A DNA stretch of 64,000 bases from Escherichia phage T4, in the sequence record NC_000866.4. One strand, given 5' to 3'. The first letter of the stretch is position 1, and each line of letters begins with the position of its first letter. The notes under the pieces are model-generated. The model was not told the DNA's origin and searched no databases. It saw only the letters and a list, made by a program, of their open reading frames with translations. Shown here one piece after another: positions 19,132 through 63,380 of the stretch. The translations under genes were made by a program, and so were the position numbers.

Positions 19132-19758
19132 TTAACCTCTATTCATAAAAGCATTAAAAATTTGGTCATCAATAGAAACATTTACTTTAGGCTGTTTTTC
19201 AGATGGCAATTCATATCCACATATTACAATTTTATGATCAATATCAAAATACACAGAAGCAATATGATTAATGATATTTTCAGTAAAGTCTAAATCAACA
19301 TCAATATCTTTTTGACCAAAGCCCAAAGGATAAATAATGCGAGTAATTCGATTATCTTTAACAAAGATTCCACCGACATACTCTGTGCTGCGTTTAAAGT
19401 CTACACGCCGACGAAATGAAAAATATTCAGGCTCTTTATGAGCTCGGCTCATAGGACACAACGAATAACTAGAATAAGAGATGTCAAATCCTACGCCTTC
19501 AATATGAACTAAATTGTCATGATTAAACCAATTATAATCATATGCCAAGTCCATTAGATTGTCATATGTGAAAAGCACCGGATTAACATCATTGGTCACA
19601 AGCATATAATTAGCAACTGCTATAATTTCATTATTTTTAACGAATACAAACCGTGATTGATGCGAATGGCCTGGACCTGCGTTTTCACGATTAATGATAT
19701 AACACTGGGCACCTTTATATTTGTACGTGTCTTTACACTTGTGCATTTGATAAAGCAT
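19132..19758 (-). CDS. hypothetical protein at the 61.2 position (possibly the anti-DarT factor AdfA)
   Basis: 208-aa ORF; assignment by synteny and from memory only. Confidence 0.55.
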   Translation of the reverse strand: MLYQMHKCKDTYKYKGAQCYIINRENAGPGHSHQSRFVFVKNNEIIAVANYMLVTNDVNPVLFTYDNLMDLAYDYNWFNHDNLVHIEGVGFDISYSSYSLCPMSRAHKEPEYFSFRRRVDFKRSTEYVGGIFVKDNRITRIIYPLGFGQKDIDVDLDFTENIINHIASVYFDIDHKIVICGYELPSEKQPKVNVSIDDQIFNAFMNRG

Positions 19759-20051
19759 TATTCACCTACCACTTCAGCGATGATATTTTTGTTATTAAAG
19801 TTTTTATCGCAATACAGAACATAATTATACTGCATTACACCACCAGACTTAAGCTGTTTTTGCACTTCAGCTTTCATTTCAGGACGATCACGCTTAACGA
19901 TATTCATAATATCTGCTTCAATTTGAGTTTCAACCTCAGTCTGATCCGCAGTCATAGACCATTCGCACAAATCTTTATCATAACCTGCCATAGCAGGCTG
20001 AGCAGCACAAGAAGCTAAAGCAAAAATTGTAGCAAAGATGAATTTTTTCAT
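19758..20051 (-). CDS. predicted lipoprotein
   Basis: 97-aa ORF with signal peptide and lipobox (MKKFIFATIFALASCAAQ...). Confidence 0.65.
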   Translation of the reverse strand: MKKFIFATIFALASCAAQPAMAGYDKDLCEWSMTADQTEVETQIEADIMNIVKRDRPEMKAEVQKQLKSGGVMQYNYVLYCDKNFNNKNIIAEVVGE

Positions 20052-26635: not shown

Positions 26636-27025
26636 TTAGGTCAAATTTTTTACACATGAATTATAAGAATTCACTACATACTCCATCGGAGCGTTTTTAC
26701 CTGTACGCCACTGGTAATTATTAGCCCAATTTGCCCAAAGCTCAGCGCAGTAGTTTTCAATTTTTTCTTCGCGTGTAATTACATCTGAATTACGATATGC
26801 TTGAGCAGATTCATCTGGACGAATAGCTTCGTCAAAATTCGCCTGCATTTGTTCTACTGTCTGTTTTGGAGCTTCTTTATAACACTTGACATTAGGATTA
26901 TAAAATTTGCTTGAACAGTTTACAATTTTTCCTACATCAGACTGATTTACTACCGGTCCTTGAGCTACACAACCAGCAAGACCTAATGCAATAACCAAAA
27001 TAGCGATTTTCATTTCATTCTCCAA
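26636..27025 (-). CDS. predicted lipoprotein (imm.1 position)
   Basis: 129-aa ORF with signal peptide and lipobox (LGLAGC). Confidence 0.6.
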   Translation of the reverse strand: MENEMKIAILVIALGLAGCVAQGPVVNQSDVGKIVNCSSKFYNPNVKCYKEAPKQTVEQMQANFDEAIRPDESAQAYRNSDVITREEKIENYCAELWANWANNYQWRTGKNAPMEYVVNSYNSCVKNLT

Positions 27026-42115: not shown

Positions 42116-42328
42116 CTATTCCTTACTAAGAGCAGCATTCAGCTTGTTAGTAATTTTATCCAGACGCTCATTGAATTCACTAGAAGATAAGCCCTTTTCT
42201 GGAGAAATCAAACTAATCACGAAAAATATAGCAATAAAAGGAATAAGGAAAATAGCTCCAACTGCCATAAACAGAAAGAATGTTACAGTTGTAAGAAAAT
42301 CAGCTAAACCTTTACGAAATTTATACAT
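42116..42328 (-). CDS. hypothetical small membrane protein
   Basis: 70-aa ORF with one hydrophobic helix. Confidence 0.5.
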   Translation of the reverse strand: MYKFRKGLADFLTTVTFFLFMAVGAIFLIPFIAIFFVISLISPEKGLSSSEFNERLDKITNKLNAALSKE

Positions 42329-52065: not shown

Positions 52066-52917
52066 TCAATCCAGATAGTCTGAAAATTTCATCATCATAT
52101 TGTTGAATAGAAATATCAGCTCTTCAATTTGCTTATTAAAATAATCAATTTGTTCAGAATGTTTTTCGTTACTACGAACTGGTACAGGTTTTGTAGGCAA
52201 TTTAGTTGAACTGGATTCATTCGGGCGATAAATTAAAATGCAATTTGAACCAATCGGGCATTTAGCACCAGATGAATATTCTAACGTTCCAGCTTCTTTT
52301 AAAACTTCAAAAGCTAAACAGAGATGATGCCCCATATTAACATAATCAGTAGAGCGAGCTCTGATGTAATAATCATCTCCACGAGTGCTAAATTTAAAGC
52401 ATTTAAGGTCTTCTGTATTATTAGTTTTAAAAATCATTTGTTTATCTAGACCTTTAGCCAATCGAGCACCTAATGCTAATAATCGTCGTTGATTTTCCCA
52501 CAAATCTGCGATCATTTGGTCAAATGATAATTTCGGCATTAGCCGACCATAAAGGTCATATCCTTTATTATAATTGCGAAGGATTTCACTCGCATTAATA
52601 CGAGACAACGCTCCAATTTTATTAAGGGCTTTCATAATACGATTAGATAAACTCATTCCAGACCCGTTTGTTCGCTGTAAATGTTTTTCTAATCCAAATC
52701 CAATATCAACTTTAAATTTATCTAAAATTTCAGCATGAACATCTCTGTCAATAACATTCAAATCCAAAGTTGGGTTAAATCTATGAAAAAATTTATCTGG
52801 CTCTCCACGACGTAAAACAGTCCATTCATTCATCATTTTTTTATTAACTAAAGATTTAATTACTGCGTTGACATTATTAATTACTACTGACATATTTTCC
52901 TCACTCAATTTTACCAA
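52066..52917 (-). CDS. hypothetical protein
   Basis: 283-aa ORF. Confidence 0.55.
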   Translation of the reverse strand: MVKLSEENMSVVINNVNAVIKSLVNKKMMNEWTVLRRGEPDKFFHRFNPTLDLNVIDRDVHAEILDKFKVDIGFGLEKHLQRTNGSGMSLSNRIMKALNKIGALSRINASEILRNYNKGYDLYGRLMPKLSFDQMIADLWENQRRLLALGARLAKGLDKQMIFKTNNTEDLKCFKFSTRGDDYYIRARSTDYVNMGHHLCLAFEVLKEAGTLEYSSGAKCPIGSNCILIYRPNESSSTKLPTKPVPVRSNEKHSEQIDYFNKQIEELIFLFNNMMMKFSDYLD

Positions 52918-53302
52918 TTACGCGGAATAAGATTGAACAGACTATATAAGTACCACATATAGATTGAACTAATGCCATTCCAAAGAACCAAACAATATTA
53001 TCAAACCATGTCTGTTTTACGTCGAAAGGACGTAAACTTACAGTAATATTATCACCTTTTTCTATTGAAGAATACGTCTCTGGGGAAATATATTCACTAA
53101 ATCTATAACCGTCTTTGAGTTCATATACAGCAATAAACGATAAACTAGACCCCTTTCCTTGAGTTCCTGTAAGGGTATTAACTACAGTAACATCATAATC
53201 TTTATAATGCATATAATCATTAATTGCGTAATAACCATATGCAATTACTATACATAAACAACATATCAATAAATTCAATCTTTTAATTATCAACTGTTTC
53301 AT
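52901..53302 (-). CDS. hypothetical membrane protein
   Basis: 133-aa ORF with N-terminal hydrophobic helix. Confidence 0.55.
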   Translation of the reverse strand: MKQLIIKRLNLLICCLCIVIAYGYYAINDYMHYKDYDVTVVNTLTGTQGKGSSLSFIAVYELKDGYRFSEYISPETYSSIEKGDNITVSLRPFDVKQTWFDNIVWFFGMALVQSICGTYIVCSILFRVIGKIE

Positions 53303-58818: not shown

Positions 58819-59205
58819 TTATTCGAGGGAAAGAAGATACTTACTCTGGTAAAACATTCCAGTAATATCATCTATCGTGCTTTGGATGGCTGGAGGCATT
58901 TCTTTATAAATGCTGTTAGATTGGTCTAGTATGCGATCAATCATTTTAATTGTGTCGGTAGGAAGTTTACTGGCATCTGGAATTGAAGGCGTGTATTTTC
59001 GACCAGAATACCCCAAATATTGCTCACCAAATTTATCAATCAAATCTGGCAACTCGGAAAAAATAAAATCGTATGCTTTGTGTCTAGCATAACTTTTAGT
59101 TTCAAAATGTGCAGAATGAAAATAAGCTTGTGCAGCCATTAATAAACCTAAGTATTCATCTGCCTTTGAAGGTTTTCCACTTTGTGAAAAGTCGCTGAAT
59201 TTCAT
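58819..59205 (-). CDS. hypothetical protein
   Basis: 128-aa ORF, start overlaps the rI stop. Confidence 0.55.
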   Translation of the reverse strand: MKFSDFSQSGKPSKADEYLGLLMAAQAYFHSAHFETKSYARHKAYDFIFSELPDLIDKFGEQYLGYSGRKYTPSIPDASKLPTDTIKMIDRILDQSNSIYKEMPPAIQSTIDDITGMFYQSKYLLSLE

Positions 59206-59495
59206 TCAGTCTCCAATTTAATGTTCATAATTCTAGCGTATGATTGTGCCATCTCCGCGCCTCGCTCTATACATTCAAAATCAGAAGAGCACGGGTCATT
59301 TTTATAGGTCGTTCTCATAAAACTATAGAATTGTTCAGACGATTCTACGCTTTTATTTTCAAAAAGCATATAAACGTGCCTAATACCAGATTCCATAAAT
59401 TTATCAAAATGAGGATCGACATTCGCTTCAATCGATGGAGATAAAACAAATGACAATCCTAGCATGGCAAAAAGTGCTGTTGCTTTTAAGGCCAT
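59202..59495 (-). CDS. rI: lysis-inhibition regulator rI (periplasmic antiholin)
   Basis: 97-aa ORF MALKATALFAMLGLSFVLSPSIEANVDPHFDKF... with N-terminal signal-anchor. Confidence 0.85.
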   Translation of the reverse strand: MALKATALFAMLGLSFVLSPSIEANVDPHFDKFMESGIRHVYMLFENKSVESSEQFYSFMRTTYKNDPCSSDFECIERGAEMAQSYARIMNIKLETE

Positions 59496-60722: not shown

Positions 60723-60940
60723 GTCACCTTTAAGCAGTATTCTTCTACATGCTGTTTACGACCTTTCTTATCAATAAAGGTATATTCAACGAATGTTCCA
60801 ATGTAGTCTTTATCTACATCATGTGGACTATTAATTGGACATTTAGTGCGACAAATGCGTTCCCATTGACGAATAATTACTGCCTTATTCTTTGGGTCAT
60901 ATGGATGTGGATAATGTATATTCATAATAATGGTTCCCAA
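60713..60940 (-). CDS. hypothetical small protein
   Basis: 75-aa ORF. Confidence 0.5.
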   Translation of the reverse strand: MGTIIMNIHYPHPYDPKNKAVIIRQWERICRTKCPINSPHDVDKDYIGTFVEYTFIDKKGRKQHVEEYCLKVTWL

Positions 60941-61389
60941 TCAACAATCACAATTTCTAATTTAGAGGAATATGTATCTAAAATCCCCTCAATAATATCC
61001 CAGTTCCCTTTACCTATGCCTGCACCAATCCTAGGCATATAGATTGTAGGTTTAATCAGTTTATTTTCACCAAACTCATTTAATTCTAACATACAATTCA
61101 TTAAAGCGGAATACTCAAAATTTGGCCCTGGTTGAAATTGAGTATAAAGATTGAAGCAGTAAGCTTTATGAGTCCTAAAGTATTTTTCATAGACTGAGTA
61201 AGAACCGAGTTTAGTTACATCACCCCATTCAGTCTGTAATTTATCAGCTTCCAAAATTTTAGGGAAAGCTTTGGTTAATTGACCCGCTACGCCTGAACCC
61301 ATAGTATGAAAACAATTACATCCATGTGCAATATTTTTACCTTCAGCGAAAAGGGCGACAATATCGCCCTTGATATATTTTACAATCAT
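60922..61389 (-). CDS. macro-domain protein (predicted ADP-ribose binding/hydrolase)
   Basis: 155-aa ORF with macro-domain signatures KGDIV...IAHGCNC..MGSGVAG and PRIGAGIGKG. Confidence 0.72.
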   Translation of the reverse strand: MIVKYIKGDIVALFAEGKNIAHGCNCFHTMGSGVAGQLTKAFPKILEADKLQTEWGDVTKLGSYSVYEKYFRTHKAYCFNLYTQFQPGPNFEYSALMNCMLELNEFGENKLIKPTIYMPRIGAGIGKGNWDIIEGILDTYSSKLEIVIVDWEPLL

Positions 61390-61733
61390 CTAGTACTCAA
61401 TCCTCGATTATAAGAATCTACCAAACGGTCAACCATTGAATGACAAGCGGCTTTATCTTTCTCCTCCGCAACTGAACATTCTAAGGTATTCCACTTTTTA
61501 GCATATCGTTTTAACAATGTATCGTTTTTGTATCTGCTTGATTTATCTCTTTCTCCGTCTTTATATGCATATATTAATTTCTGTGCAAATTCAGCTTGGC
61601 ATGCCTTATTTTTCCCACAATAATCTGCCGCAGTGCGGTTTACATATTCTCTAATTTCAGTATATGATGTATCTGCTGACGCAGAAGCAGAAAATGAAAT
61701 TAATCCTATACATAAAACCAAAATTTTAGTCAT
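61386..61733 (-). CDS. secreted 115-aa protein (vs position)
   Basis: 115-aa ORF with N-terminal signal peptide (MTKILVLCIGLISFSASASA). Confidence 0.6.
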   Translation of the reverse strand: MTKILVLCIGLISFSASASADTSYTEIREYVNRTAADYCGKNKACQAEFAQKLIYAYKDGERDKSSRYKNDTLLKRYAKKWNTLECSVAEEKDKAACHSMVDRLVDSYNRGLSTR

Positions 61734-62271
61734 TTACTATTTCCAAAAGTTTATTATTTTTAAGGTAATTAGCCTTTTCTAGGACTTCAGAAGCATATTT
61801 AGAACCTGCTTTAACATTCCATCCCGAATTATAAGAGGATATTGCTTTTCTTATATCGCCCTTATGTATATTTAACCAATAAGAAAGTTCAATGTACGCC
61901 CAGGAAGCTGAATTGGATCGTTTATTCAACATTCTTTTTATTTCAGCATCGGTCATATTATAACCAAGTTCCTTAACTCTTGCTCGCATAGTAGGCAAAT
62001 AATTTTGGAACATTCCGTAGGCGTGATGCTTTGGTTTAGATTTTAAATTAACTCCGCCAGAGCTTTCTTGCCATAAAATGGCAGCCATTATATGACCTAA
62101 TCCGCTCTTGTGGATATTTTTGTGTGTTTTATATTTTCCATCCTTAGAAAATTGTTCCCCGAATTGATACGCGTAACGCATGTTATCGAGTTGGACATTA
62201 CTGAAAGTATGCTCGGAGCTATGTGCCATCATTGAAATGGCCAATAGACCAGCGAGTAGTGCTTTTCTCAT
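61726..62271 (-). CDS. secreted lytic-transglycosylase-like protein
   Basis: 181-aa ORF with signal peptide and SLT-like motif (AAILWQESSGG). Confidence 0.6.
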   Translation of the reverse strand: MRKALLAGLLAISMMAHSSEHTFSNVQLDNMRYAYQFGEQFSKDGKYKTHKNIHKSGLGHIMAAILWQESSGGVNLKSKPKHHAYGMFQNYLPTMRARVKELGYNMTDAEIKRMLNKRSNSASWAYIELSYWLNIHKGDIRKAISSYNSGWNVKAGSKYASEVLEKANYLKNNKLLEIVND

Positions 62272-62278
62272 GCTTACC

Positions 62279-62740
62279 TCATTGAGTTTTAATTACTGCT
62301 TTAGAAGCCTTTCCTGGTAAACGACGACTGTTGATAATTGCCATCCTACATTGAAGTGACGGGTCTTTGAACTTCTCGTTAGGTTTACAAACTGTAAATC
62401 CAAGCCAAAGATTTCCATCTGTGATTTCTAAACGTCCAGGACGATATTCAACCCCATCAATAAAATCCTCGTCAATGTCAGGACGCGGAGGCATACTCAG
62501 GAATTCATTAACTTCTAAAACATGGTCTTTTATTTTATGGAATAATTCAAAAACGTATGTCTCATCAATCTCCCGTTGAATTGCGCGATCAAGAAGATGT
62601 TGAGAATATTTTAGATGAAACGATGAGACTCCTGCTGCTTTTGATGCCTCACGAATCTCATTGTTAATTTGACGAAACTCCGACTCAAAGTGACGACGAA
62701 GCTTATTTCGACGGATAAAAACTTCTGTATTGATAGTCAT
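62279..62740 (-). CDS. regB: endoribonuclease RegB
   Basis: 153-aa ORF MTINTEVFIRRNKLRRHFESEFRQINNEIREA... Confidence 0.88.
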   Translation of the reverse strand: MTINTEVFIRRNKLRRHFESEFRQINNEIREASKAAGVSSFHLKYSQHLLDRAIQREIDETYVFELFHKIKDHVLEVNEFLSMPPRPDIDEDFIDGVEYRPGRLEITDGNLWLGFTVCKPNEKFKDPSLQCRMAIINSRRLPGKASKAVIKTQ

Positions 62741-62768
62741 GTTATTCTCCTCTTAACTGATAGAAAAA

Positions 62769-62797
62769 TTATACCACAGTCAAGAGGAAAAGTAAAC
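62769..62797 (-). promoter_or_regulatory. early sigma70-type promoter upstream of regB
   Basis: Minus strand GTTTACttttcctcttgactgtgGTATAAT. Confidence 0.6.
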
Positions 62798-62799
62798 AG

Positions 62800-63078
62800 T
62801 TATTCTTTAAATCTAATCAATTTATTCATAGACTTTGAAACTTCGGCACGAACCTCATGTAGATTTTTGAGCTGTTCAAGACGCTGCGTATAGTAAGCAA
62901 TTTCATCTTCTTCGAGACAGTCCTGCGAATCTTCTTTAAGATAACGTGCATAGTCCTGGAAAGCGTTACGGACTACTTCCTGGAAGTCATCAAGACTTTG
63001 AATTTTCTTAGGAGCAACAGATACACGACGAGGGGCAGTATAATACTCATAACCAAACCCTGCGCTTAATTGAGCCAT
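62800..63078 (-). CDS. hypothetical protein (vs.3 position)
   Basis: ORF 62800..63120; likely ATG at 63076-63078 ([14 protein letters not shown]...) overlapping the upstream stop. Confidence 0.5.
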
Positions 63079-63380
63079 TAGTATTTTTCCTCTGGTTGGA
63101 ACACTGCACGACAAGCCCACATACTGGCTTCTTTGAGTTTCGTTTTAGCAATAGTTAACTGATCGAGACTTTCAGCATAATTCTTCGCGAATTCACAGTC
63201 TTCGCAATTATCTAGTGCTTCCCAGAATTCATCATATAAAGCATCAAAGATAAGTCCTAAACGAACTTCAGCGTCTTTAATAGCATTTACTTTACCGATT
63301 TTCTCTTCAGTATGTGGTTTATAACCCTTAATATCTTCAATCATATTTGACTTCCTCACCAGTACATAATACGTATTCAA
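63078..63380 (-). CDS. acb2: probable Acb2-like anti-CBASS cyclic-nucleotide sponge (vs.4 position)
   Basis: ORF-track start is TTG; first in-frame ATG gives about 88 aa ([17 protein letters not shown]...); assignment by synteny and from memory. Confidence 0.55.

Follow-up and report, generated by a model that had tools for sequence, protein, structure and literature searches.

Three phage enzymes that attack murein, T7 gp16, phi6 P5 and lambda R, act either at entry, from the virion, or in late, holin-dependent lysis. Escherichia phage T4 has a gene, vs.1, whose product is predicted to belong to the same enzyme class, but this protein carries a Sec signal of its own and is expressed early. 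Here we analyzed vs.1 together with the gene that overlaps its end, vs, whose product is annotated as a valyl-tRNA synthetase (ValRS) modifier. Both lie in a 64,000-nucleotide stretch of the T4 record NC_000866.4, which we call the window. The vs.1 and vs region within it matches phage T4 records with 100% identity, and window coordinates equal the T4 reference coordinates of a published omics study.

Among cellular enzymes, the closest described systems are Slt70, MltD, MltE and the goose-type lysozymes. Vs.1 has in common with them the SLT domain and, by prediction, a helical lysozyme-like fold and a periplasmic location. As in family 1 lytic transglycosylases, a Glu-Ser pair at the end of a helix is followed by GxxQ, YNxG and Tyr motifs. 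Unlike the bacterial enzymes of glycoside hydrolase family 23 (GH23), Vs.1 is small, single-domain, phage-encoded and early, and in sequence it has very little similarity to enzymes of solved structure.

For Vs, three systems invite comparison. The first is T4 Spackle, which inhibits the gp5 lysozyme, a murein hydrolase. Like Vs, it is a small, helical protein that is made early and has a Sec signal, but no similarity between the two was detected in sequence or fold. The second comprises periplasmic enzyme–immunity pairs, namely the muramidase effectors of type VI secretion systems with their Tsi/Tgi-type immunity proteins, together with the lysozyme and transglycosylase inhibitors Ivy, MliC/PliC and PliG. 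By analogy, vs.1–vs resembles them as an enzyme gene followed by that of a small, fast-evolving protein with a Sec or lipobox leader. Unlike in those systems, Vs has no homology to the known immunity proteins or inhibitors, both proteins would be exported in the same cell, and some Vs.1 homologues occur without Vs. The third is the T4 tau factor, which binds host ValRS and after which vs was named. The vs open reading frame (ORF) carries its name in all records, whereas Vs, unlike a cytoplasmic tau factor, has export signals, a lipobox variant, conserved cysteines and a coupling to the gene of a predicted periplasmic enzyme. Overall, we lean slightly towards regarding vs.1–vs as a conserved, co-exported module of an enzyme and its partner that acts on the host cell wall.

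Layout of the vs.1–vs locus

The features that define the locus are the following.

61726–62271, minus strand: vs.1 coding sequence, 181 amino acids (ORF; 100% identity to T4 vs.1; Pfam SLT; phrog_600; AlphaFold 2 model)
61386–61733, minus strand: vs coding sequence, 115 amino acids, annotated "valyl-tRNA synthetase modifier" (ORF; annotation; phrog_1256)
61726–61733, minus strand: 8 nucleotides, ATGACTAA, in which the end of vs.1 with its stop overlaps the start of vs (read from the sequence)
62277–62280, minus strand: GAGG, the Shine-Dalgarno sequence of vs.1, which overlaps the stop codon of regB (sequence; entry X04567 annotates a ribosome-binding site here)

A preliminary description of this DNA, made from the sequence alone, had reported two adjacent overlapping ORFs, and the 8-nucleotide overlap confirms it; translational coupling between the two genes is possible. 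In T4, regB lies upstream of vs.1, and tk.4, a macro-domain gene, lies downstream of vs, with the ends of vs and tk.4 overlapping by 4 nucleotides. In the 1986 sequence entry X04567 both ORFs were nameless, vs.1 being ORF 61.4 and vs ORF 60.9.

Vs.1 as an SLT/GH23-type protein

Vs.1 matched the Pfam SLT domain (PF01464) over residues 61–154 with 25.1 bits (E 1.4e-5), above the curated gathering cut-off of 21.3, and several of its homologues carry a precomputed PF01464 match. It falls into phrog_600, with weaker PHROG matches to lytic tail proteins and endolysins. The AlphaFold 2 model, built from an alignment of 32 homologues, had a predicted local distance difference test score (pLDDT) of 88.9 and a predicted template modelling score of 0.83. 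The top Foldseek matches of this model in the PDB were MltD, Slt, goose-type lysozyme and a GH23 chitinase, with probabilities of 0.99–1.0 and template modelling scores of 0.42–0.53, and the fold matches also included the T7 core protein and the phi6 lysin. Identity to the enzymes in these matches was 14–20%. The sequence search of Vs.1 against the PDB returned nothing usable, the profile search against the PDB only a weak tail of g-type lysozymes (E 0.33), and the NCBIfam search no meaningful match.

The preliminary description had also singled out an SLT-like motif in the 181-residue ORF. It was located as follows, together with a second SLT motif.

62053–62085, minus strand: motif AAILWQESSGG, residues 63–73, with the putative catalytic Glu69 (codon 62065–62067) followed by Ser70 (coordinates, conservation)
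61822–61833, minus strand: Y147-N148-S-G150, an SLT motif of the 'AYNAG' type (conservation)

Across the 32 homologues Glu69 is invariant and Ser70 nearly so, and G86, F88, Q89, Y147, N148, G150 and Y159 are invariant as well; G86-M-F88-Q89 occupies the place of the GLMQ motif. The pattern W-x-E-[ST]-[SN] and the pattern YN[AS]G each occur in all 44 distinct Vs.1 sequences from IMG/VR. In the model, E69-S70 stands at the C-terminal end of the helix formed by residues 59–70. The predicted lysozyme-like GH23 fold and the invariant glutamate bear out what had been read from the motif. The residues of Vs.1 were equated with the catalytic residues of Slt70 by motif knowledge, not by residue-level superposition. 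The mature protein would have 163 residues, a mass of about 18.8 kDa and an isoelectric point of 9.7, and its residues 19–58 form a family-specific N-terminal extension.

The SLT similarity of vs.1 has been published before (Nolan 2006, citing earlier PSI-BLAST results), and some GenBank records already name Vs.1 a "transglycosylase SLT domain-containing protein"; the two genes and this similarity are thus already known. Judged by domain match, motifs and predicted fold, Vs.1 is a real SLT/GH23-type protein. The conserved motifs suggest that it is rather likely to be catalytically active, and peptidoglycan remodelling by Vs.1 is plausible.

Export signals of Vs.1 and Vs

Both proteins begin with a predicted leader peptide, as the preliminary description had proposed.

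62218–62271, minus strand: Vs.1 signal peptide, residues 1–18, MRKALLAGLLAISMMAHS, predicted cut AHS/SE (then SEH) (heuristic; leader in 32 homologues)
61674–61733, minus strand: Vs signal peptide, residues 1–20, MTKILVLCIGLISFSASASA, predicted cut ASA/DT (then DTS) (heuristic; family conservation)

Each leader combines a positively charged n-region with a hydrophobic core (mean Kyte–Doolittle value 2.4 in Vs.1 and 3.0 in Vs) and small residues at −3/−1, the pattern of Sec leaders cut by signal peptidase I. The predicted mature N-termini are SEHTFSNVQLDNMR for Vs.1, from residue 19, and DTSYTEIR for Vs, from residue 21. The calls were made with a simple heuristic (n-region, h-region of 10–15 residues, −3/−1 residues) combined with conservation, and the same heuristic flags only 7 of the 110 minus-strand ORFs of at least 60 amino acids in the window. 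It also picks the ORFs at 19758–20051 (Spackle) and 59202–59495 (annotated rI), both of which we take to be exported T4 proteins. The idea that early periplasmic proteins are unusual for such a phage does not hold for T4, given Spackle and RI in the same window.

Conservation gave the leaders further weight. Essentially all homologues, examined as 45 different Vs sequences and 44 different Vs.1 sequences, retain a leader, whose sequence drifts and gains or loses residues from one homologue to another, as is typical of signal peptides. In the Vs.1 model, pLDDT is about 56 across the first 20 residues. The Vs leader is present also in distant family members from Klebsiella, Acinetobacter and metagenomic T4-like phages, including P0094. 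Moreover, in one clade the signal-peptidase-I site is replaced by a lipobox (criterion [LVI][ASTVI][GAS]C at the leader end): the leader is MKKLFVLLVVFALSGC, that is, MKKLFVLLVVFA-LSGC-K.

Lipobox vs-family ORFs, all with canonical LSGC: L043, 3049–3375; L044, 2495–2821; L047, 3049–3375; L060, 3049–3375

These variants still fall within phrog_1256 (E 1.5e-31), and T4 Vs itself has no lipobox. Because a single family uses two different export devices, the sequences give strong evidence that Vs works in the envelope. We conclude that Vs.1 is very probably an exported SLT-fold protein, and that Vs acts in the envelope with a probability nearly as high. Actual export and leader cleavage would be expected for both proteins.

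Three other minus-strand ORFs of the window were flagged by the leader heuristic. The leader of the ORF at 26636–27013 (125 amino acids, start MKIAILVIALGLAGC) is of the lipoprotein type and includes a lipobox. The ORFs at 52901–53302 (133 amino acids) and 42116–42328 (70 amino acids) have strongly hydrophobic N-termini, which may be membrane anchors instead of cleaved signals.

Vs, a small helical protein with four conserved cysteines

Vs belongs to phrog_1256 (E 1.7e-39), its homologues carry the PF26829 ValRS_modifier domain, and T4 Vs is the founding member of both families. Mature Vs has a mass of about 11.0 kDa, and its AlphaFold 2 model (pLDDT 91.2) consists of four helices.

61443–61619, minus strand: four conserved cysteines of mature Vs, C39 (61617–61619), C45 (61599–61601), C86 (61476–61478) and C97 (61443–61445) (conservation)

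The four cysteines are invariant or nearly so, and exactly four follow the leader in 43 of the 45 distinct Vs sequences, the other two being truncated. In the predicted bundle they would cluster near one end, and they probably form two disulfides.

Searches for relatives outside the family came back empty. An exhaustive profile search with mature Vs over 1.84 billion representatives returned only 6 clusters, all T4-like and none cellular; BFVD held only its own family, the sequence search against the PDB gave nothing usable, and the comparison with Spackle found neither a sequence nor a fold relation. Expressed in E. coli, His-tagged full-length Vs has been reported to form inclusion bodies; this insolubility suits an uncleaved precursor but proves little.

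Pairing of vs.1 and vs across phages

How regularly the two genes occur together was read from 51 IMG/VR loci (L013–L063) collected with the Vs.1 profile. In every one of them (51/51) the distance from the vs.1 stop to the start of a vs-family ORF lies in the range of −8 to +3 nucleotides. The adjacency extends to Klebsiella, Acinetobacter and metagenomic T4-like phages despite different flanks, and the Acinetobacter phages have no regB upstream of the pair. In several relatives the cluster adjoins the rI antiholin gene. The overlap alone proves nothing, because compact T4-like genomes join unrelated genes by overlaps of 4–8 nucleotides; it is the conserved adjacency that carries weight for linkage.

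By tblastn, 794 records contained Vs and 2044 contained Vs.1. These counts understate Vs, because it diverges faster: RB69 and T4 share 67% identity in Vs and about 83% in Vs.1. According to the profile search, the frequent absence of Vs that the two counts suggest is mostly an artefact of sensitivity within Straboviridae. Apparent gene decay in Edwardsiella phage PEi20 was likewise rejected: its 54-residue 'vs' (L012, 2236–2400) is an annotation error, and a 115-residue ORF with a leader lies at L012, 2053–2400. The vs-family ORF is occasionally shortened (L028, 85 amino acids) or split (L046, 65 + 61 amino acids) beside an intact vs.1.

Outside Straboviridae, more distant Vs.1 homologues occur without Vs in Ackermannviridae and Felixounavirus.

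L010, 1501–2049: Vs.1 homologue of about 31% identity without vs, Escherichia phage garuso (Felixounavirus)
L009, 1453–2070: Vs.1 homologue of about 31% identity without vs, Salmonella phage Det7

In Felixounavirus the homologue, which bears the annotation 'putative lysin', sits between rIIB and a polynucleotide kinase gene, close to an i-spanin gene. In Aeromonas phage 31, other small genes stand downstream of vs.1.

A third exported ORF (phrog_4957, 130–152 amino acids) is found between vs and tk.4 in 21 of the 51 loci, so that vs.1–vs and phrog_4957 make up a cluster of exported proteins.

phrog_4957 ORFs: L011, 2363–2755; L008, 2324–2749; L005, 4836–5246; L003, 778–1185; and those in 21 of the 51 loci L013–L063

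In many non-T4 Straboviridae this ORF overlaps vs by 4 nucleotides. Its leader ends in A/W, and the protein has two conserved cysteines and a C-terminal NEYATYKI-like motif. No phrog_4957 homologue was found in the T4 window.

Expression and fitness in minimal medium

In published omics data, vs.1 and vs fall into the class of early RNA and middle-phase protein, which agrees with the early expression given in the preliminary description. The class assignment implies that both proteins were detected. A candidate promoter lies upstream of regB.

62768–62796, minus strand: strong sigma-70-like promoter TTTACT-17-TATAAT with TG, upstream of regB (10/12 matches, extended −10)

No terminator-like site was found on the minus strand between the regB promoter and vs. 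Terminator-like hairpins occur here exclusively on the non-coding strand, at a frequency no higher than in shuffled sequences, and were not retained. The late-promoter box TATAAATA was not found nearer than 59746. The regB promoter is the likely source of an early transcript through regB, vs.1 and vs, and the three genes would be co-transcribed.

Fitness data come from a published insertion screen. According to the HIDEN-SEQ preprint (2025), vs.1 and vs are non-essential in lysogeny broth (LB), whereas in M9 glucose no T4 gene is more strongly depleted than vs, and a clean vs knockout plates poorly there. The values below, taken from supplementary Data S8 of that study, are log2 fold change for LB versus M9, p, adjusted p and mean reads in the LB control.

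vs: −2.19; p <0.00001; adjusted p about 0; 26.6 reads
vs.1: −0.87; p 0.0055; adjusted p 0.155; 22.6 reads
regB: +1.17; p 0.049; adjusted p 0.80; 178.6 reads
tk.4: −0.07; p 0.86; adjusted p 1.0; 289.6 reads
vs.3: −0.06; p 0.91; adjusted p 1.0; 652.1 reads

The LB-control reads for vs and vs.1 are thus roughly 7 to 30 times below those of neighbouring genes. This shared fitness footprint could reflect a shared pathway or a polar effect of vs.1 insertions on vs. Opposite to vs in the same comparison, insertions were enriched in regB as well as in td (+1.44), nrdA (+1.51) and nrdB (+1.67).

Neighbouring genes

The gene downstream of vs, tk.4 (60922–61389, minus strand), encodes a macro-domain protein (Pfam Macro, 27.7 bits). 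On the other side lies vs.4 (63078–63344, minus strand), which we take to encode an anti-CBASS protein that binds cyclic GMP–AMP (CBASS, cyclic-oligonucleotide-based antiphage signalling system). A 2023 Nature paper on CBASS mentions vs.4 56 times, and a 2025 preprint named the tk.4 product AdfM, an anti-DarTG2 factor. The early region combines such counter-defence genes with the exported vs.1–vs pair.

A proposed role in the host cell wall

If the pair is an exported module, its course of action might be as follows. Early transcription of vs.1 and vs, for which the regB promoter is the probable source, comes first, and the two proteins appear in the middle period. Both would then be exported by the Sec pathway and lose their leaders. 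In the periplasm, Vs.1 would be a soluble GH23/SLT lytic transglycosylase with Glu69 as its single catalytic acid, cutting the glycan strands of the sacculus and leaving 1,6-anhydro-N-acetylmuramic acid ends. Vs would be the co-exported partner; most probably it would bind or regulate either Vs.1 or a murein enzyme, by restraining or by targeting it. Together they would condition the wall of the infected cell, for sacculus growth, lysis timing or lysis efficiency, and this conditioning would matter most in slow-growing cells in minimal medium. We give an even chance to the claim that Vs works with Vs.1. A physical or functional interaction between the two, the physiological role of the pair and the enzymatic activity of Vs.1 are inferred, as are export itself, leader cleavage and the disulfides. 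Loss of restraint on Vs.1 would fit the fitness data, because the vs defect in M9 is stronger than the vs.1 defect.

Several observations weigh against this interpretation. Export, leader cleavage and muramidase or transglycosylase activity are predictions for both proteins, with the leaders called by the heuristic combined with conservation, and the Foldseek E-values of Vs.1 are modest (best 7e-3). Polarity of insertions on vs may account for the vs.1 fitness signal, and correction leaves the M9 effect of vs.1 without significance. A zinc site in a cytoplasmic protein would explain the four cysteines equally well. Vs resembles no known inhibitor of lysozymes or transglycosylases among those compared (Ivy, MliC/PliC, PliG and Spackle), and Vs.1 homologues without Vs exist in Aeromonas phage 31, Det7 and Felixounavirus. 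Overlaps of 4–8 nucleotides also link unrelated genes, as at the vs/tk.4 junction (4 nucleotides). Finally, work by Neidhardt, Marchin and McClain is said to have shown vs-dependent stabilization of ValRS in vivo, and in classical experiments a temperature-sensitive ValRS was reportedly rescued in vivo, an effect for which the protein must be in the cytoplasm.

Alternative explanations

The strongest alternative is that the annotation is right. In that case Vs would be the cytoplasmic tau factor that binds ValRS, its hydrophobic N-terminus would not serve export or only part of the pool would be exported, its adjacency to vs.1 would be incidental, and Vs.1 would be alone in the periplasm. The universal annotation and the family names favour this explanation, purified tau factor is reportedly about 10 kDa, near the mass computed for mature Vs, and overlap of unrelated neighbours is common among T4 genes. 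The vs knockout defect is also specific to minimal medium, where aminoacylation capacity could limit, which is how the HIDEN-SEQ authors read it. On the other hand, a leader that appears cleavable throughout the family, with a lipobox in one clade, makes no sense for a cytoplasmic protein, and the four conserved cysteines do not favour one either. Moreover, Vs stays beside the gene of a predicted exported enzyme across genera while the flanks change, and it diverges faster than Vs.1 although ValRS is conserved. Nor is there an internal start for a cytoplasmic isoform, because the only methionines of Vs are M1 and M100. Text searches, whose scope did not take in the older key literature, found no paper on assigning vs to this ORF or on a Vs signal peptide, and X04567 had left ORF 60.9 without a name. 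Judging from these signals, the ValRS-modifier label and the export signals are hard to reconcile, and we regard this explanation as rather unlikely.

The export signals suggest a further proposal, which we put forward tentatively as a possibility short of an even chance: vs would not be, or not only be, a cytoplasmic ValRS modifier, and its product would be a periplasmic partner of Vs.1, probably an inhibitor or regulator, in a wall-remodelling module that is conserved among T4-like phages and needed in nutrient-poor hosts. If so, either the vs locus of the 1970s belongs to a different ORF, or the binding of ValRS is secondary or takes place after lysis.

Superinfection exclusion, which the preliminary description had raised, or resistance to lysis from without would have the pair alter the wall or bind components of incoming phage. 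The early expression and predicted periplasmic targeting, which T4 Sp in the same window shares, would suit this, as would the position beside rI, whose antiholin senses superinfection, in several relatives. The sole hint that points to exclusion itself is a weak match of the lipobox Vs variant to phrog_1119 Cor (E 0.0013, residues 1–76), which lies mostly over the leader; T4 Vs has no such match. Nothing else specific points there. Vs shows no sequence or fold relation to Spackle, exclusion in T4 is already explained by imm and sp, and the phenotype known from single-phage assays is one of growth that depends on the medium and not one of exclusion. We consider this role improbable.

Equally improbable is that Vs.1 is an auxiliary lysis enzyme or non-catalytic murein binder that helps endolysin E late, with Vs an unrelated small protein: e, t and the spanins account for lysis in T4, vs.1 lies outside any lysis cassette (early RNA, no late promoter nearby, and regB, vs and tk.4 as neighbours), a Sec signal would deliver Vs.1 long before lysis, the conservation of all its catalytic-type motifs argues against a dead enzyme, and the strict pairing with vs would remain unexplained, all of which we set against the lysis role proposed by Nolan 2006, the PHROG matches to endolysin domains and the 'lysin' annotation of Felixounavirus homologues near spanin genes.

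Significance

What seems new here, from comparison across the family, is that the "ValRS modifier" proteins are uniformly export-tagged and locked to vs.1. That the 115-residue ORF is annotated as a modifier of a cytoplasmic synthetase is a real puzzle, which the preliminary description did not contain. Among lytic phages T4 serves as the reference, and for some fifty years textbooks have carried vs as a curiosity: why modify one tRNA synthetase? If Vs is exported and works with a wall-cutting enzyme, the phenotype of the M9 screen needs a different explanation, and the family name would be misleading in at least 794 records that carry the family, many of them so annotated. It would also mean a new phage function, an early, Sec-delivered remodelling of the host wall controlled by a small partner. 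Should the annotation hold instead, the conserved leader and the lipobox would be signs of a protein with an unusual dual location. In both cases, the export-tagging of the ValRS-modifier family makes an old question of T4 biology directly testable.

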